From positions 19,331 through 83,330 of the forward strand of contig PLPK01000076.1 in assembly GCA_003159795.1 (NCBI GenBank): a stretch of 64,000 nucleotides of DNA, written 5' to 3'. Source of the stretch: Acidimicrobiaceae bacterium. GTDB taxonomy: Bacteria > Actinomycetota > Acidimicrobiia > Acidimicrobiales > Bog-793. Each line of letters opens with the position of its first letter. Within the stretch, counting starts at the first letter, position 1. The notes under the pieces are model-generated. The model saw only the letters and a list, made by a program, of their open reading frames with translations. It was not told the DNA's origin and did not search any database. Position numbers and translations under genes: made by a program. Shown piece by piece: positions 45,980 through 64,000 of this stretch.

Positions 45980-46795
45980 TCACGCCGCCTGTTCACCCGC
46001 CTCGGACCCCAACCGCCCGAGGATCGCGGCCGCCGCCCTCTGGATGCGCCCGCAGGAGGCCCGGACGGCGGCGACCGCCTGTTCACCGCCGCCCGCCCAC
46101 GTCGCGACGTACCCGAACGAGTAGTCGCCGCTGTCGACGCCGAGCGCGCGGCACACGACGTAGGCGGTCGATTCGGCCTCGAGCTCGGCGAGTGCCCGGT
46201 CCGCGAAGCCCTCGTGGAGGAGGGCGTGGGCCAGCTCGTGGGCGAGGGTCTTCAACCGCTGGGCCGGCGCGTTGCGGGTCTCGATCCGGATACGACGGTC
46301 GTCGTGGGAGCAGTCGCCGTTGATGCTCCCCGCCAGGACGTGGTCCTCGACGGCGAAACCAAGCGATCCGGCGACCTCGACCAGCCGGGCGAAGTGCCCA
46401 TCCGGGTCGTCGCCGACGAGTTGGTTGCAGACTGACGGCAGCTCGGCCCCGTCGGTCTGCGCGACGTCGAAGACCGGCACGAACTTGAAACCCCGCACGA
46501 CGCGCTCGGATTCGTCCTCGACGAGGCCCTGGGGCCGGTAGACGATGGGCGCGAGAATCCAGATCGCCTTCTCCCCGGCACGGACGAACCGGCCGAGGCC
46601 CCGCCACGCCCGAAAGCCCGCCACCTGTGTCGCGCCCGGGCACTGGGCGGCGATGAGGAGCACGTTGTTGAAGCTGTAGCGGTGGAACCGGCTCTGGAAC
46701 TCGAGGTAGCGCCGCCACTCGCCCGATGTCGTTAGACGGGCGATCCCCTCGGCTAGCTGGTTGATGCATTTCGCGTGCCTGTCGCTGCCGGTCAC
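45980..46795 (-). CDS. ArdC-like ssDNA-binding / metalloprotease protein
   Basis: N-terminal ArdC/DUF1738 pattern (WRRYLEFQSRFHRYSFNNVLLIAAQCPGATQVAGFRAWRGLGRFVRAGEKAIWILAP) and a C-terminal HExxH (LAHELAHALLHE). The start is uncertain because the upstream ORF part is Pro/Arg-rich. Confidence 0.7.
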   Translation of the reverse strand: MTGSDRHAKCINQLAEGIARLTTSGEWRRYLEFQSRFHRYSFNNVLLIAAQCPGATQVAGFRAWRGLGRFVRAGEKAIWILAPIVYRPQGLVEDESERVVRGFKFVPVFDVAQTDGAELPSVCNQLVGDDPDGHFARLVEVAGSLGFAVEDHVLAGSINGDCSHDDRRIRIETRNAPAQRLKTLAHELAHALLHEGFADRALAELEAESTAYVVCRALGVDSGDYSFGYVATWAGGGEQAVAAVRASCGRIQRAAAAILGRLGSEAGEQAA

Positions 46796-47115
46796 GTGCC
46801 TGTCCCTCCCTGTCGAGCCAGTGCGGAACACCCCGGGACATCGGGGTGGAGCGGCCCGACGGCCCGCCGGGACGGGCCACCGCGGGTGCGGCGGTCGTGG
46901 CGGAGCTCCGGCGGGTGACGCCGATACAGGGACGCTGGGGGGAACGACCGATCGCCATGCCGGCAGCGACATCCCGGCAGGCGCGGTGAGAAGGGATCAG
47001 CGCGGTGACCCGATTGCGGTCGACACGCTAGGTGCGGCCAGTGACATTCCGCGCCCCTGGCGACGGGGGGCGGCGCCGGGTCCGGCGCGGCCCTCAGCTC
47101 AGTGCTGCGGGAGCC

Positions 47116-48288
47116 TCAGGCGCTCCGCGCGATCGACGCTCCCAGGTGGCGGGCGATGATCGCCATCCGCATCGGGATCATGTTCGCCATCTGCTCGACG
47201 TCTTTCATCCTCGGGTCCGAGTCGACGCTCGGATCCAGCTCGTCCCGGCGGGGGCGCGGGTGCAGCACCATGCTGTCCGGCGCCATCTGCTGGATCCGGT
47301 CGTAGTCGACGATCCAGCTCGCGTAGTCACGGGCCAGCTGCTCGGCGCGCACGATCTCCGCCGGGTCCTCCCCCGTGTACTCGTCCGGGTTGCGGCCGAG
47401 GTACAGGACGTCCGTCTCGTGCATCGCCGCGTCGAGGTCGCCGGTCCTCGTCAGGCGGTCGCCGAGCAGCTCGACGAGCGCGCGGGGCACTCGGGCCGCG
47501 GGCGACTCCACGGCGACGATCTTCATGCCCAGCGTCGCGGCCCCGATCATGAGGGAGTGGTGCGCCCGGTACCGCTCCTGGTCGCCGACCACCGTGATGA
47601 CCAGCCCGTCGAAGTGCTCGAACTTCTTGTGCACGGTGAACAGGTCGCCGAGGGCCTGGGTCGGGTGCTCGTTGTGCCCGTCGCCGAGGTTGATGACCGG
47701 CACGACCCGTACCAGCTGCCCGTACTCGAAGGCCTTGGCGATGACCTGGGCCGCGAAGGCCGGACCCCCGTTCTCGGCGGTCCGGATGCCCAATAGGTCC
47801 GCCTGGGTCGCGAACGCCACCCAGGAATCCGCGAGCGACTCCCCCTTCGCCTCCGAGGAGCTGCTCATACCGCTGATCAGCTCGGCGGAGCCGCCGAGCT
47901 TCCGCATCGCCGAGGTGCAGCTGCCGCCGGTCCGGGTCGACGGCTGCCGCATGATCGCCTTCATGACGGCGCGGGGCAGGAGCGGCACGCCGCGGCGCTC
48001 GGGGTCCCGGATGGCACGCTCGGCGGCGTAGGCCTCGTCGAGGTAGATCGCGATGTCGTCGGCAGACAGCTGGTGCATCGAGAGCAGGTTCTTGCCCGAG
48101 GCGTCGCCGTCGATCGGTTGGCTCACCGCGGACAGGTCAATCACTTCCACCGTCTCGGTTGCGGCCTTCTTCTTCTCCCTGGGCATGAGGCTCCAGTCAA
48201 ACGTGTCGATACGGGCTTCCGCCCCGCCGTCGGTCATGTCGGACAAGCCGGCGATCGGTCCACCACGACGGCTTCGCCATCCCGTCAT
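47116..48288 (-). CDS. Divergent aspartate/ornithine carbamoyltransferase-family protein (ATCase-like, paralog 3)
   Basis: QPSTRTGGS (degenerate STRTR), KGESLADS, GDGHNEHPTQALGDL and LHPRPRRDEL. It has an N-terminal extension of about 60-80 aa. Confidence 0.7.
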   Translation of the reverse strand: MTGWRSRRGGPIAGLSDMTDGGAEARIDTFDWSLMPREKKKAATETVEVIDLSAVSQPIDGDASGKNLLSMHQLSADDIAIYLDEAYAAERAIRDPERRGVPLLPRAVMKAIMRQPSTRTGGSCTSAMRKLGGSAELISGMSSSSEAKGESLADSWVAFATQADLLGIRTAENGGPAFAAQVIAKAFEYGQLVRVVPVINLGDGHNEHPTQALGDLFTVHKKFEHFDGLVITVVGDQERYRAHHSLMIGAATLGMKIVAVESPAARVPRALVELLGDRLTRTGDLDAAMHETDVLYLGRNPDEYTGEDPAEIVRAEQLARDYASWIVDYDRIQQMAPDSMVLHPRPRRDELDPSVDSDPRMKDVEQMANMIPMRMAIIARHLGASIARSA

Positions 48289-49053: not shown

Positions 49054-50208
49054 GTGCAGGAGATCCTCGGCGATATCGAGCGGTGGCGTTCGATCGGCCG
49101 GCGGGTGGCGCTGGCCCGGGTCATCGGGACCCAGGGATCGGCTCCGCGCGAGCCTGGCGCCGCGATGGCCGTGAGCGAGGACGGCGAGGTCGCCGGGTCC
49201 GTGTCGGGCGGTTGCGTGGAGACCGCGGTCGTCACCGAGGCACTCGACGCCCTCGCGACAGGAAGACCGCGACTCGCGACGTTCGGCTACTCCGACGACG
49301 AGGCCTTCGCCGTCGGCCTCACCTGTGGCGGGACGATCCGGCTGTTCGTCGAGCCCCTGGGACCCCCGGGGATGGACCAAGGAACCGTGGAGGCACTGCG
49401 CGGCCACCTCGAGGCACACCGGCCCGTCGCGCTCGCGACGGTCATCGAGGCCGACACCTGCGCCGGATCGGCGGCAGATGACCGCCCCACAGCCCCGGGT
49501 ACGACGATGCTCGTCACCCCCGACGCGGATTCTCTCGGCTCGTTGGGCGATCCCGGTCTCGACGACGCGGTGCGTCGGGATGCACTCGGGCATCTCGACG
49601 CCGGCACGACCGCCCTGCGCCGCTACGGCCCCCACGGCGAGGCCACCGGGCAGGACATCGCCGTCTTTGTCGAGAGCTTCGCCCCGCCTTCCCGGATGGT
49701 GATCTTCGGTGCGGTCGACTTCACCGCGGCGCTCGCCAGAGTCGCCAAGGTCCTCGGCTACCGGGTCACCGTGTGCGACGCACGTCCCGTGTTCGCCACA
49801 CCGGCGCGGTTCCCGATGGCGGACGAGATCGTCGTCGACTGGCCCGACCGCCACCTCGCGACGATCGGCCCCGAGCTCCGCGAGCGGGACGCGGTGTGCC
49901 TCCTCACTCACGATCCCAAGTTCGACGTGCCGGCCGTCGTCGCGGCCCTCGGCACCCGCGTCGGCTATATCGGCGTCATGGGGTCGCGCCGCACCGCCGC
50001 CGACCGCGAGAAGCGGCTGCGGGCGGCCGGTGTGGACGACGCCGGCCTCGCCCGGGTGATGGCCCCGATCGGCCTCGACATCGGGGCACGGACTCCGGAG
50101 GAAACGGCGATATCGATCTGTGCCGAAATCGTCGCCCTGCATTCGAGGAACCACACGGGCGTGCCGCTCCGCGCGACGGACGGACCCATCCACGATGCGG
50201 GTTCCTGA
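49054..50208 (+). CDS. XdhC/CoxI-family molybdenum-cofactor insertion protein
   Basis: N-terminal XdhC_CoxI domain (VIGTQGSAPREPGAAMAVSEDGEVAGSVSGGCVE) and a C-terminal Rossmann-like domain (MVIFGAVDFTAALA). Confidence 0.85.
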   Translation: MQEILGDIERWRSIGRRVALARVIGTQGSAPREPGAAMAVSEDGEVAGSVSGGCVETAVVTEALDALATGRPRLATFGYSDDEAFAVGLTCGGTIRLFVEPLGPPGMDQGTVEALRGHLEAHRPVALATVIEADTCAGSAADDRPTAPGTTMLVTPDADSLGSLGDPGLDDAVRRDALGHLDAGTTALRRYGPHGEATGQDIAVFVESFAPPSRMVIFGAVDFTAALARVAKVLGYRVTVCDARPVFATPARFPMADEIVVDWPDRHLATIGPELRERDAVCLLTHDPKFDVPAVVAALGTRVGYIGVMGSRRTAADREKRLRAAGVDDAGLARVMAPIGLDIGARTPEETAISICAEIVALHSRNHTGVPLRATDGPIHDAGS

Positions 50209-50282
50209 ACGCGAGGACTCGCTGACAATCGCCGGTGGCGTGACGGGGCCGGACCGCTAGCGTTCGAAGCGAGAGAGATCCG

Positions 50283-52673
50283 TTGGACACGATCACCACC
50301 GTCGGGACCCGAGGCAGGGTCGGAGAAGCCACTCCGCGCATCGACGGGGAACCGAAGGTCACGGGCGCGTTCGCCTACGCGAGCGATCTGCACCGCGAAG
50401 GGATGCTCTTCGGGGCCACCCTGCGCTCCCAGGTGGCGTACGCCCGCATCCACAGCGTCGACACATCTGGGGCGGCCGCGACCCCCGGCGTGGTGGCGGT
50501 CATGCTCGGCTCCGACGTGCCGGGCAAGAACCGCTTCGGGCTGAACTTCTTCGACCAGCCGGTCCTCGCCGAGGACGTCGTGCGCTATTCGGGCGAGCCG
50601 ATCGCCATCCTCGCCGCCTCGACACCGGGGATCGCCCGGCAGGCGATAGGACGGATCGCCGTCGAGCTCGAGGAGCTGCCCGGCGTCTACGACATGGAGA
50701 AGGCGCTGGCACCTGACGCGCCGCGCCTGCACGAGTTCGGGAACGTCCTGCGTCACGTGCACATCGTCCACGGCGAGCCCGACACCGCCGAGGCGGACGT
50801 CTGGGTCGACGGCTACTACGAGACGGCGATGCAGGACCAGGCGGCGCTCGGACCGGAGGCGGGACTGGCGGTGCCGGCCGAGGACGGCGGCGTCGACCTC
50901 TACGTCGCGACGCAGTGGCTGCACGTCGACCGCGAGCAGATCGCGCCGTGCCTGGGACTGCCCGAGGACAAGGTCCGGTTGCACCTCGCCGGTGTCGGGG
51001 GCGCGTTCGGTTCCCGCGAGGACATCCACATGCAGATCCACGCCTGCATGCTGGCCCTGCGAACCGGCCGGCCCGTGAAGTTCAGCTACGGGCGCGAGGA
51101 GTCCTTCCACGGCCACGTCCACCGCCACCCCTCGAGGATCTGGATGCGGCACGGCGCCAACCGCGACGGCCGCCTCGTGACCCTCGACGTCCGGCTGATG
51201 TTCGACGGCGGCGCCTATGCCTCCTCCTCCCCCGCCGTGGTCGGCAACGCGGCGAGCATGGCCGCCGGTCCCTACGAGATTCCGAATGTCCGGATAGAGG
51301 GCACGGTCGTCTACACGAACAACCCGCCGTGCGGGGCGATGCGCGGCTTCGGCGCGCCGCAGGTCTGTTTCGCCCACGAAGCCCAGATGGACAAGCTCGC
51401 CCGTGCCCTCTCGCTCGACCCGGTCGAGCTGCGGTTGCGCAACGCCGTGTCCACCGGCTCGGTCCTGCCGACCGGACAGGTCGTCACCGGAGCCGCCCCG
51501 GTGCGGGAGCTGATCGAGCGATGCGTCGCGATCCCCCTGCCGGAGCCCGAACCCGACCGGGGCCGCGACCTCATGCACTACCCCGGCGGCGCCGGCAACG
51601 TCACCCACGGCGAGGGGATCCGCCGCGGCGTGGGCCTCGCCGTCGGCTACAAGAACGTGGCGTTCAGCGAGGGTTTCGACGACTCCGCGACGGCGCGGGT
51701 GACCCTCGCCCGCACCCCCGACGGTCCCGAGGCCGAGATCCACACCGCCGCGGTCGAGATGGGCCAGGGCCTCTACACCTTCCTCACCCAGGTCGTGCGG
51801 ACCGAGCTCGAGATCGACCGCGTCGAGCTCCACGCCATCGACACCCTGATCGGTGGCGCCGGGTCGACCTCGGCGTCGCGCCAGTCGACGATGGCGGGCG
51901 GGGCCGTCCAGATGGCCTGCGCCGCGGTCCGCGAGGCCCTTTACGGCCGGGCGCGGGCCCGGACGGCGTCGGTGCCGCCCGGCGCCGAGCTCGCGCTCGG
52001 CGATGGCTGGGTCACCTGTGACGGCGCGCCGCTCGTCGAACTGGGGGACCTGCTCGACGAGCCGGTCTCGTGCGAGGCCGTCTACCACCACCGCCCGACG
52101 GGGAACCTCGATGAGAACGGCCAGGGGGACATCCACGTCTCGTTCGCCTTCGCAGCCGAGCGGGCGGTCGTCGAGGTGGACGAGGACCTCGGGCTCGTAC
52201 GCGTCCTGCAGGTGGCGGCGGCGATCGACGTCGGCCGCGTCCTCAATCCGCTCGGTCTCACGGGCCAGATCGAGGGGGCGACCGCCCAGGGCCTCGGGCT
52301 CGGGCTGATGGAGGAGGTCCAGCTCCGAGACGGCGTGATCTCCAACCCGTCCTTCACCGACTACCTCATCCCGACCATCCTCGACATGCCGCCGGTCGTC
52401 TCCGTGGCGGTCGAGGATCCCGAGCCCGGCGCCCCCTACGGCCTGAAGGGCATCGGCGAGTCGCCGACCATCGTCGCTACGGCGGCCGTGGTCGCCGCCT
52501 TGCGCGACGCGACGGGGCGGGAGCTGAACCGCGCGCCGGTCACGCCGGACGAGCTCGTCGGCCTGCGGGGTCCCGCAACGACGTCGGGCCCCCCACCGAT
52601 TCCCGAGGTACCCGGCCAGAAGTCGGTGCCGTTCTACTTCGGGATGAGCTCCGGCCAGCAGAAGATCATGTAG
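50283..52673 (+). CDS. Xanthine dehydrogenase-family molybdopterin-binding large subunit
   Basis: 796 aa with an a/b-hammerhead N-terminus (RIDGEPKVTGAFAYASD), GGAFGSRED, AMRGFGAPQ and LKGIGESP. Confidence 0.9.
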   Translation: MDTITTVGTRGRVGEATPRIDGEPKVTGAFAYASDLHREGMLFGATLRSQVAYARIHSVDTSGAAATPGVVAVMLGSDVPGKNRFGLNFFDQPVLAEDVVRYSGEPIAILAASTPGIARQAIGRIAVELEELPGVYDMEKALAPDAPRLHEFGNVLRHVHIVHGEPDTAEADVWVDGYYETAMQDQAALGPEAGLAVPAEDGGVDLYVATQWLHVDREQIAPCLGLPEDKVRLHLAGVGGAFGSREDIHMQIHACMLALRTGRPVKFSYGREESFHGHVHRHPSRIWMRHGANRDGRLVTLDVRLMFDGGAYASSSPAVVGNAASMAAGPYEIPNVRIEGTVVYTNNPPCGAMRGFGAPQVCFAHEAQMDKLARALSLDPVELRLRNAVSTGSVLPTGQVVTGAAPVRELIERCVAIPLPEPEPDRGRDLMHYPGGAGNVTHGEGIRRGVGLAVGYKNVAFSEGFDDSATARVTLARTPDGPEAEIHTAAVEMGQGLYTFLTQVVRTELEIDRVELHAIDTLIGGAGSTSASRQSTMAGGAVQMACAAVREALYGRARARTASVPPGAELALGDGWVTCDGAPLVELGDLLDEPVSCEAVYHHRPTGNLDENGQGDIHVSFAFAAERAVVEVDEDLGLVRVLQVAAAIDVGRVLNPLGLTGQIEGATAQGLGLGLMEEVQLRDGVISNPSFTDYLIPTILDMPPVVSVAVEDPEPGAPYGLKGIGESPTIVATAAVVAALRDATGRELNRAPVTPDELVGLRGPATTSGPPPIPEVPGQKSVPFYFGMSSGQQKIM

Positions 52674-52745
52674 GGATCGGAGACCAGGACCGATGCGGTT
52701 TATGCAACTGCGGGCACGGGTGGCACGGCGGCGGAGGGTGACACC

Positions 52746-53618
52746 ATGAGCTACCTGCGCCCGACGAGCTGGGCGGAGGCGCTCGCCGCCCGAGCGGAGT
52801 ACCCCGAGGCCGTCGTCGTCGCGGGAGGGACCGACGTGATGGTCGAGATCAACTTCGGTCGCCTCCACCCATCGGCCCTCCTCGACCTGTCACGGGTCGG
52901 GGAGCTGCGCGCGCTGGGCCGGGAGGACGGGCACGTCCGGGTGGGCTCCGGCGTCACCTACCAGTCGATCATGCGTGATCTCCCGGGCGAACTCCCCGGC
53001 CTCGCCGCCGCCGCCCGCACCGTGGGATCGCCTCCGATCCGGAACCGCGGCACGATCGGCGGCAACCTCGGCTCGGCATCCCCCGCCGGGGACTGCCACC
53101 CGCCGCTCCTCGCCTGCGGCGCCGAAGTCGAGATCGCCTCGGTGCACACGAGCAGAACCACGCCCGTCGCCGACTTCTTCGTCGGCCCGAAGCGCAGCGT
53201 CCTCGGCCCCGACGAGCTGATCGCCGCCGTCTGGGTGCCGGCGGCGACAGGGCCGCAGACGTTCTCCAAGGTGGGGTCGCGCAACGCCATGGTCATCGCG
53301 ATCTGCTCTTTCGCCCTGGCACTCCACCCGGACGTTGGCCGGGTAGGCACCGGGATCGGCTCCGCCGGGCCCGTGCCGCTGCGGGCCCGCGCCGCCGAGC
53401 AGTTCCTCGAGGGGCATCTCGGCGAGACGGGGGCCTGGGAATCGCGACCACGCCTGGGTGACGCCGTCGTCGATGAGTTCGCCCGACTTGTTGCCGGGGC
53501 CGCCCAGCCGATCGACGACGTGCGGGGCTCCGCCGACTACCGCCGGCACGCCCTCGGGGTGGTCGCGCGGCGATCGCTCATGTGGTGCTGGGACGAGTTC
53601 CGGGGAGGCAGGCCGTGA
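52746..53618 (+). CDS. Molybdenum hydroxylase FAD-binding subunit (CoxM/XdhB-like)
   Basis: VVAGGTDVMVEINFG, RNRGTIGGNL and a CO-dehydrogenase flavoprotein C-terminal domain. Confidence 0.85.
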   Translation: MSYLRPTSWAEALAARAEYPEAVVVAGGTDVMVEINFGRLHPSALLDLSRVGELRALGREDGHVRVGSGVTYQSIMRDLPGELPGLAAAARTVGSPPIRNRGTIGGNLGSASPAGDCHPPLLACGAEVEIASVHTSRTTPVADFFVGPKRSVLGPDELIAAVWVPAATGPQTFSKVGSRNAMVIAICSFALALHPDVGRVGTGIGSAGPVPLRARAAEQFLEGHLGETGAWESRPRLGDAVVDEFARLVAGAAQPIDDVRGSADYRRHALGVVARRSLMWCWDEFRGGRP

Positions 53619-54073
53619 GGGTCTCGTTGACCGTCAACGGGGTTGACCGTGTGGTCGACGGCGTCGAGGAGCACGAGAGCCTCCTCCACCTGCTGCGGGA
53701 ACACCTCGATCTGTTCGGCACGAAGAACGCCTGCGAGCAGGGTGAATGCGGATCGTGCTCGGTTTACCTCGACGGCGTGCTGGTCTGCTCCTGCCTTGTC
53801 GCCGCCGGTCAGGCGGAAGGGGGCACCGTCACGACGGTCGAGGGATTGTCCGACGATGGCATCCTCGATCCCGTCCAACAAGCCTTCATCGAGGCTGGCG
53901 CCGTCCAGTGCGGATTCTGCACCCCGGGCTTCGTCCTGGCCGCCCATGACCTCCTGCGACACGTGCCGGATCCCGACGACGCCCAGATCCGCGAGGCGCT
54001 ATCGGGAAACCTCTGCCGGTGCACCGGCTATCAGAAGATCATCGACGCGGTCCACCGCGCGGCAGGCCGCTAG
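53615..54073 (+). CDS. Molybdenum hydroxylase [2Fe-2S] small subunit (CoxS-like)
   Basis: CEQGECGSCSV, CGFCTPG and CRCTGYQKI. The GTG start overlaps the FAD-subunit stop (GTGA). Confidence 0.9.
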   Translation: MRVSLTVNGVDRVVDGVEEHESLLHLLREHLDLFGTKNACEQGECGSCSVYLDGVLVCSCLVAAGQAEGGTVTTVEGLSDDGILDPVQQAFIEAGAVQCGFCTPGFVLAAHDLLRHVPDPDDAQIREALSGNLCRCTGYQKIIDAVHRAAGR

Positions 54074-54126
54074 TTGGCTGGTCGGATATTCTTGCATTCG
54101 AGCAGCTCAGCGCACTGAACAGTGCT

Positions 54127-54164
54127 CGCGATTCGGTCGGGCGTCGGCTGAATACCCGAATCGC
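54127..54164. terminator. Hairpin between the convergent xdh and carbamate kinase operons
   Basis: CGCGATTCGG / CCGAATCGCG, a 10-bp perfect stem with an 18-nt loop, in a relatively AT-rich 112-nt spacer. Confidence 0.4.
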
Positions 54165-54185
54165 GCGACCTCGTTCGACGCCGAT

Positions 54186-55136
54186 CTAGTCGACGGTGAA
54201 GTGTGTCCCCGTCCGGCCGGCGACCGCCCTCGCGAGGTTCGGCGTATCCGTGACGATGGCGTGCTTCCCCCCGTTCTCGAGGTACTCGATGACCGCCTCG
54301 ATCTTCGGCGCCATGCTTCCTGCTGCGAAGTGCACGCCCTCGGCGAGATACCGCCGCGCCTCGGCGAGGCTGAGATGGTCCACCCAGCGCTCGACAGGCG
54401 TGCCGAAGTTGAGCGCCACCTTCTCGACCGAGGTGGAGATGAGGAACAGCTCGGCCCCGAGGTTGCGCGCGAGCAGGGAGCAGCCAAGGTCCTTGTCGAT
54501 CACGGCCTCGACCCCCTGGAGGTCTCCATCGGGGTCGGCGACGACGGGGATCCCCCCGCCGCCGACCCCGATGACGATGACCCCGGCCGAGAGAAGCGAC
54601 CTGATCGCGTCGAGCTCCACGATGCGCAGCGGGCGCGGTGAGGCGACGACGCGCCGCCAACCCCGATTGGCGTCCTCGACGACGTCCCAGCCGTCCTGCT
54701 GCCGGCGCCGACGCGCCTCGCCATCGTCCATGAACGATCCGATCGGCTTGGTCGGGTTCGTGAAGGCGGGATCGTCCGCCGCCACCTCCGTCTGGGTCAC
54801 GATCGCCACCACGGGCCTGTCCATGGCCCGGCGCCGCAGCACGTTCTGCAGGTTCTGCGCGAGGGCGTAGCCGATCGCGCCCTGGGAGTCCGCGCCGCAG
54901 GCGTCGAGCGGCACCTCGTGGAGCTCGTGGGCGGCGAGCTCCGAACGGCGCAGGATGAAGCCCACCTGCGGGCCGTTGCCGTGGCCGATCACGACGTCCC
55001 AGCCGTCGGCGATCATGGCCGCCACGTGCTGGGACGTTTCGTGGGCCGCGATGTACTGGTCACGCACCTCCTGGTGCATCCGGTCCTTGATCAGCGAGTT
55101 GCCGCCGATCGCAACGACGGCGAGCCGATCGCCCAT
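54186..55136 (-). CDS. Carbamate kinase
   Basis: 316 aa with LAVVAIGGNSL, VVIGHGNGPQVG and GGGGIPV. This is the ArcC/YqeA family. Confidence 0.9.
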   Translation of the reverse strand: MGDRLAVVAIGGNSLIKDRMHQEVRDQYIAAHETSQHVAAMIADGWDVVIGHGNGPQVGFILRRSELAAHELHEVPLDACGADSQGAIGYALAQNLQNVLRRRAMDRPVVAIVTQTEVAADDPAFTNPTKPIGSFMDDGEARRRRQQDGWDVVEDANRGWRRVVASPRPLRIVELDAIRSLLSAGVIVIGVGGGGIPVVADPDGDLQGVEAVIDKDLGCSLLARNLGAELFLISTSVEKVALNFGTPVERWVDHLSLAEARRYLAEGVHFAAGSMAPKIEAVIEYLENGGKHAIVTDTPNLARAVAGRTGTHFTVD

Positions 55137-55147
55137 CGCCGGGACCT

Positions 55148-56125
55148 CTAGCCCATCGTCAGCGCCATAACGGCCTTCTGGCCGTGCAGGCGGTTCTCGG
55201 CCTGGTCGTAGACGACGGAGTGCGGCCCGTCGATGACCTCATCGGTGACCTCGACGTTGCGGTCCGCCGGCAGCGGGTGCATGAAGATCGCCTCCTCGCT
55301 CGCCAGTCCCACCCGGCGGCTGTCGGTGATCCAGTCGGAATACTTGGCGATGAGCTTCGCCCCCTCGGCCTCGTCCGTCGTCGTGCGCAGCGCCCCCCAG
55401 CTCTTGGCGTAGATGACGTCCGTGCCCCGCATGCCGGCGTCGAAGTCGTGCGAGACCTCGAACGAGGCGTGAGCCCGGCGGGCCTCGGACTCCGCCTGCT
55501 CGACGATCTCGGGCAGGAGGCTGAACTCGGGCGGGTGGACGAGCCGCACGTTCATGCCGAAGCGCGGGAGCAACAGCGCCAGGCTCTGGGGCACGCTGAT
55601 CGGCTTCTGGTAGCTCGCGGCACAGGCCCAGCTGATCGTCGCCGTGCGGCCCCGCGGGTCGCCAAAGCGCTCGATGATCGTCATCAGGTCCGCCAGCGCC
55701 TGGTGGGGGTGGAAGACGTCGCACTGCATGTTGAGCACGGGCACCCGGCTCGCCGCGGCGACGTCGCGCAGGTATTTGTTGCCCACCAGCCAGTCGACGT
55801 TGCGGATGGCGATGCCGTCGTTGTAACGGCCGAGGATCTCGCCGATCTCCTTGGCGGTGTCACCGTGGGCGATCTGGGTGGTCCTGCTCTCGATGAACTG
55901 GGCGTGCCCCCCGAGCTGCGCCATGCCGGCCTCGAACGAGGCCCGCGTCCGGGTACTCGAGAAGAAGAACAGCATCGCGAGGACCTTGTCCCGCAGCAGC
56001 GGATGGGGCCGCCCGAGGGCGCGGTCGCGCTTGAGCTCGAACGCCACGTCGAGCACGGTGTCGATCTCCTGTCTGGTCCACTCGGAGAAGTCGATGACGT
56101 CCCGACCCCTAAGGTTCGTCTGCAT
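55148..56125 (-). CDS. YgeW-type (knotted) carbamoyltransferase of unknown substrate
   Basis: FFSSTRTRASFE, IAHGDTAKE, NMQCDVFHPHQALADL, SWACAASYQKPISVPQS, RFGMNVRLVHP, IYAKSW and FMHPLPADRNVEVTDEV. By recollection these closely parallel E. coli YgeW and the AOTCase-like clade rather than ArgF. Confidence 0.75.
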   Translation of the reverse strand: MQTNLRGRDVIDFSEWTRQEIDTVLDVAFELKRDRALGRPHPLLRDKVLAMLFFFSSTRTRASFEAGMAQLGGHAQFIESRTTQIAHGDTAKEIGEILGRYNDGIAIRNVDWLVGNKYLRDVAAASRVPVLNMQCDVFHPHQALADLMTIIERFGDPRGRTATISWACAASYQKPISVPQSLALLLPRFGMNVRLVHPPEFSLLPEIVEQAESEARRAHASFEVSHDFDAGMRGTDVIYAKSWGALRTTTDEAEGAKLIAKYSDWITDSRRVGLASEEAIFMHPLPADRNVEVTDEVIDGPHSVVYDQAENRLHGQKAVMALTMG

Positions 56126-56137
56126 GGTCCCTCCCCC

Positions 56138-57088
56138 CTAGCTCACGGCCCCGAGGACCAGCGAGAGCAGCGCCATGCGCATCACGACGCCGTTGAAGGC
56201 CTCGAACCAGTAGCGCGCGTGGCGGGTCTCGTCGACGTCGGCGGGCAGCTCGTCCATCCTCGGCAGCGAGTGCAGGATGATGGCGTCGGTCTTCGCCCTC
56301 GTCGCCATGAGCTCCTTGGTCACGCGGTAGGCGACCGGGGTGAGCCCGTGCTCCTCGACCTCCTCCCGGGACTTCGTGTAGTCGGCCTGCACGACCGGCT
56401 CCATGTAGACGACGTCCGCCTTCGAGAGGCACTCTTCGACGCTCTCGAACTCGGCATAGCGCAGGCCGCGGGTCGCGAGCTCGGCCGCGAACTCCGGCAG
56501 GAGCGACATCTCCGGCGGGTAGACGAGCGACGCCGTCATGTCGAATTGCGTCATCGCGTAGAGGATCGAGTGCATCGTGCGCATCCGCATGTCCCCTACG
56601 CAGAGCACGTTCAGCCCGTCGAGCGTGCCCTTGTCCTTCCAGATCGTGTAGAGGTCGGTGAGCACCTGGGTCGGGTGCTCGCCCCAGCCGTCACCGCAGT
56701 TGATCACCGGCACCGAGGACCACCTGGCGGCCTCGGCGGGTGCGCCCTGCTCGAAGTGGCGCATCGCGATCACGTCGCCGTAGTACTCGAGCATGTGGAC
56801 GGTGTCCTTGATGCTCTCCTGGTAGAAGTCTCCGGCCCGCGTCATCTTGGCGTCGGAGAAGCCGAGCACGTGCCCGCCCAGTCGGTGCATCGCCGCCTCG
56901 GTGGCGAGACGGGTCCTGGTGCTCGGCTGGTAGAAGGCGGTGAGCAGCGTCTTGGAAGCGAGCAGGTCCCCGTTCTCGCGCCGCTCGGCAAACGGCCTCA
57001 GCTCGTCGGCGACCCGGAAGACCTCGAAGAACTCGTCTCGCTCGAAGTCCTTGAGCGAGAGGATGTCCCGTCCGGCAAAGCTCCTCAT
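56138..57088 (-). CDS. ATCase-like carbamoyltransferase (paralog 2) with an altered second-substrate site
   Basis: YQPSTRTRLATE, IAMRH, GDGWGEHPTQVLTDL, VGDMRMRT and HSLPRMDEL. The segment that looks equivalent to the ATCase Asp-binding MTRVQKER reads MEPVVQAD. Confidence 0.75.
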   Translation of the reverse strand: MRSFAGRDILSLKDFERDEFFEVFRVADELRPFAERRENGDLLASKTLLTAFYQPSTRTRLATEAAMHRLGGHVLGFSDAKMTRAGDFYQESIKDTVHMLEYYGDVIAMRHFEQGAPAEAARWSSVPVINCGDGWGEHPTQVLTDLYTIWKDKGTLDGLNVLCVGDMRMRTMHSILYAMTQFDMTASLVYPPEMSLLPEFAAELATRGLRYAEFESVEECLSKADVVYMEPVVQADYTKSREEVEEHGLTPVAYRVTKELMATRAKTDAIILHSLPRMDELPADVDETRHARYWFEAFNGVVMRMALLSLVLGAVS

Positions 57089-57119
57089 CTTGTACCGCCC
57101 TTCCTGAATTGAAGGCTCG

Positions 57120-58109
57120 TCACGAGCCGAAAGTGTCGATCATCAGCCGCACGTCGCTGCCGAGCGGGTAAAGGATCGGGCAGGTCGCGCCGTTGGCGAT
57201 GTACTCGTCGACCTTGGCGCGGCACTCCTCGGGGGTTCCCGAGGCGGTGATCATCTGGACCGCGTCGTCGGGCACGAGCTTCATCGCCCGGTGGATCTCC
57301 TCCGGCCCGGCCGGCCAGGTGAGTACCTCGCCGATCTCCTCGATGAGGGTGGGGTCCACCCCGCTCGCTTTCATGATGTGGGGTTGCTGCCCGAGGTACT
57401 GGGTGAGGAGCTCCCGGGACCGGTCGAGGGCCAGCCCGCGGTCCTCGTCGAGCGAGCACACGACGAGCTGGGGCCGGTCGATCTCGTCGACCGATCGCCC
57501 GGCGCGGGCCGCGCCGATGGCGAGGTGCTCCATCGCCTGTCTGTTGTACTCGGGGCTCACCATGTAGTTGAGCACGACCCCGTCGGCGACCTCGCCGGCG
57601 AGCTCCATCATCTGCATCCCGGTCGCGCCGATGTAGATCGGCACGTGCTTGGGCGAGCGATCGCCGTGGACGATGTCGATCTCCACGTCGTCGAGGTGCA
57701 CGAAGGTGCCGTGATACGTGACGCGCTCCATGGCGAGGAGCCGGCGGGTCGCCTCGACGACCTCACGCATCGCCAGCAGCGGTCGGGTGCGGTTGACACC
57801 GACTTTCGTGGCGAGCGGCTCCCACCACGCGCCGAGCCCGAGGATCACCCGCCCCGGGGCGAGCTCGTCGAGCGTCGAGAACGTCGCGGCCAGCAGGCCC
57901 ACGTTGCGCGTCCAGATCGGGATCACCCCGGAGGCGACCTTGATCCGGCTCGTCACGGCGGCGTAGGCGGCCATCGGCACGGTCGCCTCCCGAACGAGCC
58001 GGCTCTCCGCCTGCCAGACCGCCTCGAATCCCCGCTCCTCGGCATAGCGCGAGTACTCCATCCCGTCCCGGATCGGGTGCATGTCCTGCAGGTACAAGGC
58101 GGCCCTCAT
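57120..58109 (-). CDS. Luciferase-like (LLM) flavin/F420-dependent oxidoreductase
   Basis: MRAALYLQD...[15 protein letters not shown]...VILGLGAWW is typical of LLM-class oxidoreductases. ATG 58109 overlaps the ssnA-like stop by 1 nt (TGATG). Confidence 0.8.
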
Positions 58110-59464
58110 CACTTCTCCCTCCGTGGATCGTACGTGTGCACCGGCGTCGCCTCGAGACGGCTCCACAACCGCCCGGCCACATGGACCTCGTCGGCGGCGA
58201 CGGCGGCCTCGTCGACACGGGTCGACCGACCGTCCTCGACGACGAGCTCGCCGGCCACGTAGACGTCACGCACCCGTCCCGGCGCCAGTCCGAAGACCCA
58301 GTGCCCCGCAAGGTTCTCGGCACTGATGGGTGTCGGCGGGTCGTAGGAAAGAACGCAGAGATCGGCCGGTGCGCCGGGCCGCAGTGTGCCGAGCAGCGGC
58401 TCGCCGAAGCGCTCACCGGCGACGCGCGCCCCCTCGGCCAGCCGGGCGAGCGGCCAATCCGGTGGCGTGGCGAGGTCCGACTCCCTGGCGCGGAAGAACC
58501 CGGCCTGGGCCTCGGCCACCATGTCGCCGCCGATGCCGTCGGTCCCCAGCGCGACCTTCCCCGGGCGCCGGTTGAACGGCGAGTGGCCGACACCGTTGTT
58601 CATGTTCGAGCGCGGATTGCACACGACGGTCGCGCCCGTCTCCTCGATGAGGCGCGCCTCGTCGTCGTCGACGTGCACGCAGTGCGCGAGCAACGCGCGC
58701 TCGTTCAGCACACCCGCCTCGGCGAGCCGCCTCGCCACCCGACGGCCGGCGCGCCGCAGGCTGTCGCGCTCGTCGACCGCGCCCTCGGCCACGTGGATGT
58801 GCACGCCGACCCCGGCGTCGGAGGCCACCTCGGCGCAGCCCTCGAGGGTCTCGTCGGACAACGTGAAAGAGGCGTGCGCCCCCACCATGCCCCGCGCCAG
58901 GTCGCGGAACTCCCGCAGGAAGCGCCGGTTCTCCTCGATCCCGGCCGCCGCGCGTACCGGGCCGTCCCGGTCGGAGACCTCGTAGCAGAGCACCGAGCGG
59001 ACGCCCAGCTCCCCCAGGGCTCCGGCGATCACGTCGAGCGAGCCGTCGATGAAGTTCGGTGAGGCGTGGTGGTCGATGATCGTCGTCGTGCCGGCGAGCA
59101 GCGCGTCGAGCCCGCCCCGCACCGCTGAGGCGCGCACCGACTCCTCGTCGAGCGCGCGGTCGAGCCGCCACCAGATCCGCTGGAGGATCTCCGTGAAGTC
59201 GGTCGGCGGCAAAAGCGCATAGGGCATCCCCCGGGAAAGCGCCGAGTACAGGTGGTGGTGGGCACAGACGTTGCCCGGCACGATCAGCGTGCCGGAGCAA
59301 TCCCGGGTCACGGGGCCCCGCTCCCCCGCCCCGAGCGAACGCACGCGCCCGTCGGCGATGACCAGGTCAGCTCGGATGACCTCGGGCGGCGACAGGGTCA
59401 CGACGACCGTCGCGTCGCACAGGGCGACCGGCGGGGCGGCGCCGGCGCGGTCCGGCCGGGTCAT
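58109..59464 (-). CDS. ssnA: SsnA-type amidohydrolase
   Basis: [58 protein letters not shown] and [11 protein letters not shown]. By recollection these are near-identical in pattern to E. coli SsnA. Confidence 0.85.
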
Positions 59465-60812
59465 CGCCCGCGTTCGATCCCCGTGAACAGCAGCACCACC
59501 CGTTCGGTGGGTGCTACCGCGCCCACTGCTATCAGTTCGGCGAGCCCGGCGAGCCCGGCCGAACCGGTGGCACTGACGGCGTAACCGGCCTCCTGGCCGA
59601 GCTCGTGCGCCCTGACGAGACGCGCCTCGTCGACGACGACGGGCTCACCGCCCGTCTCGAGCATGGCCCGCACGACCGCCAGCCAGTCGTACGTCTCGTC
59701 GTCGAGGATCCCCTCGGCGACGCTTCGCGGCTCGGTTTCCCAGGGCCACATGAACATGGAGCGCCGCTTGGCGGCCGACGCGAGGACCCGGGCGAGCTCG
59801 GCGGCGTCCGACGGGTCGACGAGCTCCCCGCGCACCCGGCGCCAGGCGCGCTCGAGCGGGTGGGCGGCGGCCGTCTGCACGGTGTGGATCCGCGGCAGGC
59901 CTCCGAGCTCACCGATGGCGTGCGCCTCGCCGAGCGCCTGCGCACAGCTGCTCGCGAGCGCTCCGCCACCCACCTGGACGACGAGGTGGTCGAGCGTGAG
60001 CCCCTCCCCCGCCAGCTGCGACACGAGCTCGTAACCGAGGGTCTCGCCCCCCTCGATCGCCAGGCCGTTCAGGTTCCCCTGGCAGGTGAAGGCGAGGGCG
60101 CCCTCGTCGAGCTCGGCGAGCAGGCGCAGGTAGGTCGGGTCGCCGCTGGCGCCGTTGCGGCGTTCGCACACCACGATCTCGGCGCCGAGCTCGACTAGCC
60201 GCCGGACGATGCCGTCGTCGGCGCCGACGGGCACGAAGACCCGCAACGGCCAGCCGACCGCCGCCGCGACGACACCGGCCGCGAGCGCGGCGTTCCCACA
60301 GCTCGCGACGGCGAGTGTCGGGCGCTCGCCGCGAGGGGCGAGTCCGAGCGCCCCGGCCACCTCGAGATGCAGGGCCACGCCCATCAGATGGCGCGACTTG
60401 TGCGAGCCGGCGACGTTGCCGGTCTCGTCCTTCACCCACACGCCTCCCGGCTCAGAAAAGCCGAGGGCGCCCGAAAGGACGTCGCTGCGCTCGAGCGGCG
60501 TCACCGAGAACCCGTGGCCGTCGACCCGGGCGACCGCCGAGTCGAGCCGGCGCACCAGCTCGACGAAGGCCGCGTCACTCATCCCACCGGCAAGCGCGCG
60601 GTGGTAGCTGTGCAGGAACCCCCGGTAAGCGACGAAGGAGCAGGGATCGGCCGCCCCCGCCCCCGGGAAGCGCAGCCCGTCGGGCGGAAGGACGCGGCTG
60701 AGCACGTGGTCGACATCCCCGTCCCGGTGACGCGGGCAGCGGAATGGGTAGGGGTCGCGAGGCCCGGGCGAGGAAGCGCAGCCGGCGCAGACGAGCCTGC
60801 TCGCCGGGGTGT

Positions 60813-60816
<4 letters not shown>
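59461..60816 (-). CDS. Fold-type II PLP-dependent enzyme with an N-terminal Cys/His-rich segment
   Basis: [21 protein letters not shown] (PLP-lysine region), [13 protein letters not shown] and [12 protein letters not shown]. The N-terminus carries CAGC...CPRH. 4-nt overlaps with both neighbouring genes. Confidence 0.7.
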
Positions 60817-62309
<1,493 letters not shown>

Positions 62310-62533
62310 CTTCCTCCTCCGTGTCGCTTCCTCGCGACGATCCCCTCGTCGCTACCAGCCGCACCTGAGGTCCCCGAGCCTCCTTCGACCGCTCCGTGCA
62401 CCTGTCTTATCCGACAATCTTGGCCGGGCATCGCGCCCGGCCCTTCCCTCACCACGGGACGGCTCACCCGCCCGGGCTCCTACCCGCCTGCGCACCCTGG
62501 TGACCACACGGGTCCCCCGGCGCGCCCGACAGG

Positions 62534-62568
62534 GCGGTGGCCCCCGCGCGGCGCGCGGGGGCCACCGC
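62534..62568 (-). terminator. Strong hairpin immediately downstream of the NCS1 permease gene
   Basis: GCGGTGGCCCCCGCGC / GCGCGGGGGCCACCGC, a 16-bp perfect stem with a 3-nt loop, 7 nt from the permease stop codon. Confidence 0.55.
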
Positions 62569-62575
62569 TATCTGC

Positions 62576-64000
62576 CTAGGAGGAGTGCTTTGCGACCTCC
62601 TTTGGAACCGAACGGAACGACAGCACCAAGTAGACGACCGCGCTGACGATCATTCCGAAGGCCCAGCTGAAGTCGGCACCGTGGGTCCAGTTCGACAACG
62701 GCGAAGAGTACGAGGGCGTGTAGAACGCCGCGTCGATCCACATCATCGCCGCGAACATTCCAGCTCCCAGCGATACCAGCGCCTTCCAGTTGAAGCCGCC
62801 GTTGCGCCAGTACAAACCACCGTGCTTGGCGGCCAGTGAAGCGAACTCGTAACGGCCGCGCCGGAGCCAGTAGTCGACGATGTAGACGCCGAACCACGCA
62901 CCGAGCCAGACGACGATGTAGTCGAGGAACCCGGCAAGGTCCGTGTAGAAGTTCCCCTTGAAGATCACGAGGGCCGTCACGCCACCGGAGATGATGGTGT
63001 CGATGACGACGCAGACCCACCGCTTGGCCGGGAGGCCGAGCGCCTGGAGGGTGACCCCCGAGGAGTACATGTCGAGCGTGTTGATCGCGAACAGCTGCGG
63101 CAGCGCCAGGATCAGGAACGGCCAGAAGAACCAGCTGGCGAACGCCGTCGGAAGAGCGGCGGCGGCACCGGGGCCGTAGATGTTGCTCTGGAGCGACGTG
63201 CTGACGAGGTAGGCGCAGGCGCCGAGGAGCTCGAGCAGGATCGACGGGATGGCCCCGCCGAGCGTCGCGGCCCAGAACGTCTTCGCCGGGGGGGTGTCAG
63301 CCGGCAGGTAGCGGGAGTAGTCCGCCGCGTTCTCGGTCCAGCCGAGACCCCCTGCCGAGACGATGAGCACGAGCCCGGTGGTCCACAGCCACCACGAGTC
63401 CGTGCCGTGCGCGTGCAGGTCGGACAGGTGAACGTGGGGAAGGACCAGGCACGCCATGATGGCGAAGACCACGACGAACACGTAGGACAGGTAGTGCAGG
63501 ACCTTCGTGATCGTCGCGTGCCCGAGGAACGGCACGACGAACTGGATGAGGACGGCGATGATGATCGCGATCGTCTTGCCGGTGTCGTTGAGGTGGATCC
63601 CCTCGTGGCTGAACATCGCCACGACGACCAAGACCGCGATCACGAGACCTTCGACCTCGAAGCCGACCTGGGTGATCCAGTTGAACAACGACGGTGCGCG
63701 GTTCCCGTTTCGCCCGAAGGGCGCGCGGCTCACCATGAAAGTCGTCGTTCCCGACTTCGGCCCGGCAAGGCTCGCCGCGCCGAGGAAGACGTAGACGACG
63801 TTCCCGAGGAGGATCGCGAAGACGGCCTGCCAGAACGTCAGCCCGAAGGCGACGATCAGGGCGCCGTAGACGAGGAACTCGACGTTCCAGATCCCGCCGG
63901 CCCACATCCAGAACAGGCCCGCTGGGCGCATTTTCCGGTCGGCGTCGGCGACGTGCTCAATGCCCCGCTGCTCGAGTTTGAAGGCGCTATACCCCTCAGC
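62576..64000 (-). CDS. NCS1 (purine-cytosine/hydantoin/allantoin-type) permease, 5' end outside the window
   Basis: Polytopic with a CodB/NCS1-like pattern (FWMWAGGIWNVEFLVYG, FGRNGNR, NWITQVGFEVEG). The reading frame stays open upstream of Met 63931 (LEQRGIEHVADADRK...) to the window edge. Confidence 0.85.
   Translation of the reverse strand, partial: AEGYSAFKLEQRGIEHVADADRKMRPAGLFWMWAGGIWNVEFLVYGALIVAFGLTFWQAVFAILLGNVVYVFLGAASLAGPKSGTTTFMVSRAPFGRNGNRAPSLFNWITQVGFEVEGLVIAVLVVVAMFSHEGIHLNDTGKTIAIIIAVLIQFVVPFLGHATITKVLHYLSYVFVVVFAIMACLVLPHVHLSDLHAHGTDSWWLWTTGLVLIVSAGGLGWTENAADYSRYLPADTPPAKTFWAATLGGAIPSILLELLGACAYLVSTSLQSNIYGPGAAAALPTAFASWFFWPFLILALPQLFAINTLDMYSSGVTLQALGLPAKRWVCVVIDTIISGGVTALVIFKGNFYTDLAGFLDYIVVWLGAWFGVYIVDYWLRRGRYEFASLAAKHGGLYWRNGGFNWKALVSLGAGMFAAMMWIDAAFYTPSYSSPLSNWTHGADFSWAFGMIVSAVVYLVLSFRSVPKEVAKHSS

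Follow-up and report, generated by a model that had tools for sequence, protein, structure and literature searches.

The reductive pathway of urate degradation was established as late as 2025, from studies of gut bacteria. In it, urate is reduced to 2,8-dioxopurine by XdhD-YgfM and reduced further by YgfK, both rings are opened by SsnA and HyuA to give 2,3-diureidopropionate (DUPA), and DUPA is taken to pyruvate by YgeW, with YqeA making ATP, followed by YgeY and YgeX (bioRxiv 10.1101/2025.04.24.650524; PMC12507026). YgeW and YqeA together make ATP from DUPA (bioRxiv 10.1101/2025.04.24.650524). Which ureido group is cleaved first is under debate, and the group attacked by YgeW is disputed between two published papers, Liu et al. 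assigning it the 3-ureido and Li et al. the 2-ureido group (PMC12990295). Here we analysed a 64,000-nucleotide stretch of an Acidimicrobiaceae genome (the window; contig C54, positions 19331-83330, of a metagenome-assembled genome of 2.08 Mb with ~70% G+C and 95% completeness, which the names of homologues assign to Acidimicrobiales), in which genes for two different carbamoyltransferases lie ahead of a carbamate kinase gene. As judged from residues and gene context, this trio probably forms the last, energy-conserving part of a modified reductive urate (2,8-dioxopurine) pathway, in which two sequential phosphorolyses would yield two ATP.

A second group of described enzymes bears on the trio. 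Barba et al. (2013) defined pseudo-ATCases, paralogues of aspartate carbamoyltransferase (ATCase), and showed for subgroup 1, represented by the ureidoglycine carbamoyltransferase (UGTCase) Rxyl_2847, phosphorolysis of allantoate, which like DUPA is a diureido acid and thus provides a precedent (PMC4016543). Subgroup 2 was defined on one organism, Nocardioides sp. JS614, and was given no function (PMC4016543); our literature search found no later work on it, nor any mention of a second carbamoyltransferase in the 2025 papers on reductive urate degradation. The three genes of the window, named here CT_A, CT_W and CK, are as follows.

56138-57088, minus strand: CT_A (P0001), an ATCase-like 'pseudo-ATCase' carbamoyltransferase of 316 aa (OTCace_N and OTCace domains; ATCase matches)
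55148-56125, minus strand: CT_W (P0002), a short YgeW-type (knotted-clade) carbamoyltransferase of 325 aa (by residues, maximum likelihood (ML) tree and AlphaFold2 (AF2) fold)
54186-55136, minus strand: carbamate kinase (CK, P0003) of 316 aa (NF009007 above cut-off)

Open reading frames and junction sequences bear out the arrangement given in a preliminary description of this DNA, with CT_A and CT_W separated by TAG, 12 nt (gggggagggacc) and ATG, and CT_W and the kinase by TAG, 11 nt (aggtcccggcg) and ATG; both transferases carry two carbamoyltransferase domains. P0003 scored 373 bits against NF009007 (cut-off 266) and 352.8 against TIGR00746, just below the cut-off of 358.25; it shares 50% identity with E. 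coli YqeA and is the sole carbamate kinase of the genome (single tblastn match). Since the layout recurs in dozens of species of several phyla, it is not a product of chance.

CT_A resembles ATCases in fold and in its carbamoyl-phosphate site, and it departs from them where aspartate is bound. It scored 248.8 bits against TIGR00670 (cut-off 236.95) and 220 against NF002032 (cut-off 263), its best PDB match was the ATCase of P. abyssi, and its AF2 model fits ATCases (TM ~0.82), with a pLDDT of 79 and low confidence in the 80s and 240s loops; proteins of this type carry the aspartate carbamoyltransferase label in public records. In an alignment of 81 CT_A orthologues from at least 6 phyla with E. 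coli PyrB, STRTR, R105, HPTQ, R167 and L267 were kept in all 81, and the carbamoyl-phosphate site (S52-T53-R54-T55, R105, H134, Q137) is thereby retained. Changes found in all 81 were S80 to R, K83 to D, K84 to Y, R229 to P, R234 to D and P266 to S, with Q231 replaced by V in 80 of them; E230 and D236 are likewise invariant in the family. Aspartate is bound by the RxQxER motif (R229, Q231) together with K84, and these are found in all known ATCases (PMC4581275). At the position of this 240s loop P0001 reads YMEPVVQAD, so that the MEPVVQAD seen earlier at the aspartate-binding loop, along with STRTR and HPTQ, was confirmed by the alignment. The HSLPR that had been called intact is not, as ATCases have HPLP and the Pro266 to Ser change, fixed in the CT_A family, is a pseudo-ATCase signature (PMC4016543).

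Of the ATCase aspartate ligands, CT_A thus retains only R167; to judge by the alignment, the ligand of the alpha-carboxylate stays and the beta-carboxylate pocket is gone, with its charge reversed. Because the carbamoyl-phosphate site and R167 persist while the beta-carboxylate ligands are lost and the charge is reversed, the pocket would suit an Nalpha-carbamoyl amino acid whose side chain is neutral or positively charged; 3-amino-2-ureidopropionate and DUPA itself would be examples. Albizziin would be a poor fit, and would need the reverse pattern. In motif and context P0001 matches pseudo-ATCase subgroup 2, a comparison made by description only: it is an ATCase-annotated paralogue with H[ST]LP (HSLP here) and no R-x-Q, it adjoins a ygeW homologue, and xdh and hyuA genes are nearby. 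The tabulated GX[SC] motif of that subgroup has no obvious match to PVV here, which may be a difference of alignment.

The conservation of CT_A is itself unusual, with a mean column identity of 84% over at least 6 phyla, far above that of its neighbours. In Spirochaetota loci, CT_A is ~75% identical to P0001, and the accompanying YgeW-type, kinase, SsnA and PLP proteins (PLP, pyridoxal 5'-phosphate) are 40-55% identical to those of the window. This may stem from additional protein interfaces or from tight constraints on catalysis, and the 74-88% identity seen across phyla could also reflect channelling, in a complex of CT_A with the PLP enzymes or with carbamate kinase.

The second transferase, CT_W, had been called YgeW-type, and rightly so. 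It keeps the proposed substrate residues of YgeW (Q98, Q160, S200, K203, K270, D334 and E344; D124 is ambiguous), which are mostly invariant in 31 short and 3 long forms, and an ML tree unites the short forms with the long YgeW proteins, that of E. coli included, in one clade (99/96), with acetylornithine carbamoyltransferase (AOTCase) as its sister and the ornithine carbamoyltransferases (OTCases) outside; the long YgeW proteins nest among the short forms. By tree and residues, P0002 is accordingly placed in the knotted YgeW clade. It scored 164.5 and 154.2 bits against the NCBIfam YgeW profiles NF005538 and TIGR03316, below their cut-offs of 453 and 500, and with 325 aa as compared to ~396 aa in YgeW it lacks the YgeW-specific insertions, namely the extra N- and C-terminal helices and those of the 240s loop. 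The AF2 model (pLDDT 93) had AOTCase and OTCase as best folds. The OTCase motifs DxxxSMG and HCLP are missing, AKSWGAL and HPLP standing in their place, and all OTCase models scored below cut-off. Neither P0001 nor P0002 has canonical aspartate- or ornithine-binding residues. Two details of the preliminary description need amendment. The segment SWACAASYQKPISVPQS, which had been placed at the DxxxSMG position, is a proline-rich loop that aligns at equal length with TWAYSPSYGKPLSVPQG of YgeW, and it is AKSWGAL, with the equivalent of YgeW Lys270, that corresponds to DxxxSMG. The HPHQ noted in P0002 is present and is not diagnostic, as the family varies between H, F and T at that position. P0002 was also considered as an AOTCase, which it resembles in the AKSWGAL loop and in fold; this was rejected because P0002 has STRT where AOTCase has SMRT, Q where AOTCase has E144, and a short 80s loop that lacks the Trp, and because it is placed in the YgeW clade.

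The trio forms the 3' end of a seven-gene, translationally coupled operon, whose four upstream genes, two for PLP enzymes, ssnA and an oxidoreductase of the luciferase-like monooxygenase (LLM) class, are joined by overlaps of 1-4 nt or one gap of 31 nt; the LLM gene starts with the ATG at 58109, which shares 1 nt with the stop codon of ssnA (TGATG).

57120-58109, minus strand: LLM-class (F420-type) oxidoreductase, probable YgfK stand-in (family profile)
58109-59464, minus strand: SsnA-family amidohydrolase (NF005540 422.7 bits, cut-off 444; matches E. coli SsnA at 37% identity over 433 aa)
59461-60816, minus strand: ThrC-like fold-type-II PLP enzyme of 451 aa, Cys-rich in a segment at its N-terminus (profile matches)
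60813-62309, minus strand: CysK-like fold-type-II PLP enzyme of 498 aa, candidate YgeX replacement (profile matches)
62576-63931, minus strand: NCS1-family nucleobase:cation symporter, upstream of the operon (profile matches)
49054-54073, plus strand: XdhC and a three-subunit molybdenum hydroxylase, convergent to the operon (Pfam; 31% identity to E. coli XdhA)
50283-52673, plus strand: its large subunit (Pfam)
52746-53618, plus strand: its FAD subunit (Pfam)
53582-54073, plus strand: its 2Fe-2S subunit (Pfam)

Just beyond the window on the same contig (C54:83331-100000) the island goes on with further purine genes.

C54, beyond the window: 8-oxoguanine-deaminase-like gene (537.8 bits, cut-off 532)
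C54, beyond the window: HyuA/dihydropyrimidinase homologue (41% identity to E. coli HyuA)
C54, beyond the window: YgfM-like FAD subunit (homology)
C54, beyond the window: fused XdhD-like subunit (37% identity over ~1000 aa)
C54, beyond the window: selenium-dependent-xanthine-dehydrogenase-like gene (820 bits, cut-off 830)
C54, beyond the window: adenine deaminase (homology)

The genes for XdhD (with YgfM), SsnA, HyuA, a reductase, a YgeW-type transferase and carbamate kinase thus all lie on C54 within ~35 kb. As in the reductive urate pathway of E. coli and Clostridium, XdhD/YgfM-, SsnA- and HyuA-like genes share one island with a YgeW-clade transferase and carbamate kinase, and ATP would be gained via carbamoyl phosphate. 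The locus differs from that pathway in four respects: the reductase is an F420-type LLM protein, neither YgfK nor UacX; it has a second, ATCase-like carbamoyltransferase and no YgeY; it has two other PLP enzymes and no YgeX; and the YgeW homologue is the 325-aa short form that falls below the NCBIfam cut-offs. Tblastn searches found no YgeY or YgeX in the genome and no full-length YgfK, the YgfK matches on other contigs being confined to the pyridine-nucleotide-reductase part (residues ~446-949). An F420 luciferase-family reductase in place of YgfK has been described beside some SsnA genes in Chloroflexota (Li et al., PMC12507026), and the F420 biosynthesis gene cofD found in the genome makes it likely that the host makes F420. 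Neither uricase (PF01014) nor heme-copper oxidase subunit I (COX1, PF00115) was found in the 95%-complete genome, which would fit a purine route that needs no oxygen and perhaps an anaerobic or microaerobic lifestyle.

Several further observations concern the island and the operon. Three molybdenum hydroxylases, that of the window included, lie within ~45 kb. The 266-nt gap between the permease gene and the operon (62310-62575) holds G+C-rich hairpins, and an Rfam scan of 53500-64000, this leader included, found no credible riboswitch, the known purine type among those covered. The two PLP enzymes (59461-62309, minus strand) seem to displace YgeX and have no close relative among solved structures; in the ThrC-like one the N-terminal segment reads CxxC...CPxH. 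At the island edge, between a third ATCase-like gene and unrelated genes, an ArdC-N/M78-peptidase-like gene (45980-46972, minus strand) may be a mobile-element remnant; a search of PLSDB found no plasmid carriage of the CT_A gene.

A scan with one genome per species gave at least 583 loci with a P0001-type protein, and genes within ±8 kb of the CT_A gene were counted for the best 80 of these, in which CT_A is 74-88% identical to P0001 and which include Actinomycetota, Chloroflexota, Planctomycetota, Verrucomicrobiota, Spirochaetota, Armatimonadota and others. The most frequent neighbours were the CysK-like PLP gene (56 of 80 loci), the ThrC-like PLP gene (54, in 39 directly upstream of CT_A) and a YgeW-type gene (53, in 38 directly downstream), followed by carbamate kinase and an Xdh-type gene (50 each), SsnA (41) and the LLM reductase (39); YgeY was found at 5 loci and YgeX at 2. 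Two Spirochaetota loci have the order XdhD-HyuA-CT_A-PLP-CT_W-CK-YgfK-SsnA with no YgeY or YgeX, which is a self-sufficient gene set, and the locus of a Nocardioidaceae metagenome-assembled genome (L026) reads CT_A-CT_W-YgfM-XdhD-HyuA.

Co-occurrence was also followed over the whole genomes of 30 other CT_A carriers. A YgeW-type enzyme was present in all 30 (27 short, 3 long), a YgeY orthologue was absent from 25 and YgeX from 28. Where YgeX is present, in two genomes, its gene is part of the cluster, in L020 directly ahead of CT_A, and a search of the flanks found neither of the PLP genes; YgeX and the PLP pair are mutually exclusive in the clusters examined.

Taken together, the operon and the island hold homologues of the genes that make DUPA, with its two ureido groups, CT_W keeps the residues and the clade of YgeW, and the pocket of CT_A is altered; it is for these reasons that we read the trio as part of a urate pathway. 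The view in the preliminary description that the trio is a catabolic, ATP-yielding module, neither an arginine deiminase (ADI) nor an agmatine pathway, is supported by SsnA and the F420-type reductase in the operon and by XdhD/YgfM and HyuA in the island, and so is its first option of two sequential ureido substrates, given that the context genes would make DUPA. We infer every substrate assignment in the following scheme. The XdhD/YgfM-like proteins, the LLM reductase in the place of YgfK, SsnA and HyuA would lead from urate to DUPA. CT_W would phosphorolyse the 3-ureido group, because a clade derived from OTCase and AOTCase suits a carbamoyl group on a distal nitrogen, with K270 as a remote carboxylate anchor. 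CT_A would then phosphorolyse the remaining 2-(N-alpha)-ureido group, a step that is hydrolytic via YgeY in E. coli, because an ATCase-derived enzyme suits an Nalpha-carbamoyl group beside an alpha-carboxylate. The kinase would turn both carbamoyl phosphates into ATP, giving up to 2 per urate rather than 1. Carbamoyltransferase equilibria favour synthesis (PMC4016543), and the upstream PLP enzyme or enzymes, standing in for YgeX, would remove 2,3-diaminopropionate and so pull the unfavourable phosphorolyses forward; irreversible removal by a PLP lyase would explain the tight linkage of the PLP genes to CT_A. The narrower proposal that CT_A is a catabolic N-alpha-carbamoyl-2,3-diaminopropionate phosphorylase, providing together with CT_W the 2 ATP of a widespread 'all-phosphorolytic' version of the pathway and leaving the 3-ureido group to YgeW by elimination, is put forward tentatively, with rather less assurance than the urate reading as such.

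Several points weigh against this interpretation. Since 5 of the 30 CT_A genomes keep a YgeY orthologue in the cluster, CT_A is not a strict replacement of YgeY. If YgeW takes the 2-ureido group, as held by Li et al., the regiochemistry proposed here is wrong (PMC12990295). The pathway intermediate has been proposed as the R (D) form, and ATCases act on L-aspartate. The scheme also gives no reason for two PLP enzymes, and the source genus has no canonical pyrB, which leaves room for a pyrimidine role of P0001.

This last point leads to the possibility that P0001 is, or doubles as, the biosynthetic ATCase of the genus. All nine genomes of the genus were without a canonical-pyrB match above 280 bits, the pyrimidine genes pyrR-pyrC-carA-carB (C73:37725-45849) and pyrF are present, with no pyrB in the pyr operon, and P0001 lies above the TIGR00670 cut-off. 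The operon of P0001 is catabolic, and the pyr operon lies on another contig. Yet the RxQxER loop and K84 are replaced throughout the 81 orthologues, and a canonical PyrB (290-416 bits against NF002032) stands beside CT_A (~210-240 bits) in 23 of the 30 carrier genomes, as it does in two sister genera. Because the two coexist in other genomes, P0001 is probably not the housekeeping PyrB. The preliminary description had allowed for a genome lacking any other pyrB or argF copy, and this genome holds ArgF and another ATCase-like gene elsewhere. The third ATCase-like gene (47116-48288, minus strand), a better PyrB candidate, encodes a genus-specific 390-aa paralogue with STRTG, HPRPR and an N-terminal extension of ~65 aa, which keeps K84, R167 and R229, has Q231 changed to P, and is likely the substitute ATCase of the genus. 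Queries with E. coli pyrD and pyrE did not detect these genes in the genome, possibly because they are too distant. A biosynthetic role of P0001 hence appears quite improbable. It is unlikely, though less so, that P0001 cleaves or makes another ureido compound, the two transferases then having alternative substrates. Such a compound might be allantoate, as with UGTCase, 5-ureido-dihydrouracil from the minor branch of SsnA, or some other N-carbamoyl amino acid. The allantoate activity of the characterised pseudo-ATCase (PMC4016543), the joint presence of YgeY and CT_A in 5 of 30 genomes and the two products formed by SsnA in vitro (PMC12507026) speak for such a substrate, whereas an allantoinase/uricase route was not detected in the genome, CT_A is unlike UGTCase at K84 and at the 240s-loop residues, and the universal presence of a YgeW-type enzyme in genomes of which 25 of 30 miss YgeY would leave the second ureido group without an enzyme.

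The preliminary description had further raised a heteromeric or regulatory pairing, in which the two transferases would assemble into a hetero-oligomer, or one of them would lack catalysis and regulate its partner. The genes are adjacent, 12 nt apart, and the column identity of CT_A could mean extra interfaces. However, both proteins have complete carbamoyl-phosphate sites, they belong to different structural clades, CT_A to the unknotted and CT_W to the knotted one, and all known members of the family are homotrimers (PMC4581275). Moreover, a YgeW-type gene is directly downstream in only 38 of the 53 loci that have one within ±8 kb, and the YgeW-type partners of CT_A, short or long, range from 33 to 90% identity to P0002 and are often not adjacent. 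With partners so variable, such a pairing is not favoured and we regard it as very improbable.

Other known systems are more distant from the reading of the trio as the end of a urate pathway. UGTCase (Rxyl_2847) is likewise an ATCase-branch enzyme of purine catabolism that is encoded beside a carbamate kinase and acts on one ureido group of a diureido acid, but it serves the oxidative (uricase/allantoinase) route, and in the site predicted for it the K84 equivalent is retained and the 240s loop carries S/K (PMC4581275, Table 1), where CT_A has Y, P and V. P0001 was consequently rejected as a UGTCase on its differing site residues and on an allantoin route not being present. The ADI and agmatine deiminase pathways have in common with the trio the conversion of a ureido compound and Pi to carbamoyl phosphate and ATP. 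They differ in that no arcA or aguA is present in the operon and in that neither transferase has DxxxSMG/HCLP or the motifs of putrescine carbamoyltransferase (PTCase), and a classical ADI or agmatine reading is ruled out on these grounds. The reported absence of arcA and aguA holds for the window; elsewhere in the genome an agmatine deiminase gene lies beside a PTCase-like gene on another contig (C84, 3-791 and 775-1953, at the contig edge). In this PTCase-like gene DxxxSMG is replaced by TDCWWWTG, and the C-terminus is extended by ~20 aa. No kinase was seen beside the pair, a gene of which is cut by the contig edge, and the kinase of the urate operon may also serve the agmatine pathway.

The module is probably a variant of a recently described pathway and not a new kind of system. 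The locus and its relatives would represent an environmental version of reductive urate degradation with three non-orthologous replacements, of the YgfK, YgeY and YgeX functions. This has consequences for how the pathway is traced in genomes, because in the survey of Li et al. every protein with PF00185 was taken for 'YgeW' and every one with PF00291 for 'YgeX', and these markers cannot tell CT_A, CT_W and the PLP enzymes apart. The ATCase-derived pocket of CT_A offers an experimental handle on the regiochemistry of the ureido cleavages, and should CT_A have the role put forward here, twice as much ATP would be gained from the ureido groups.

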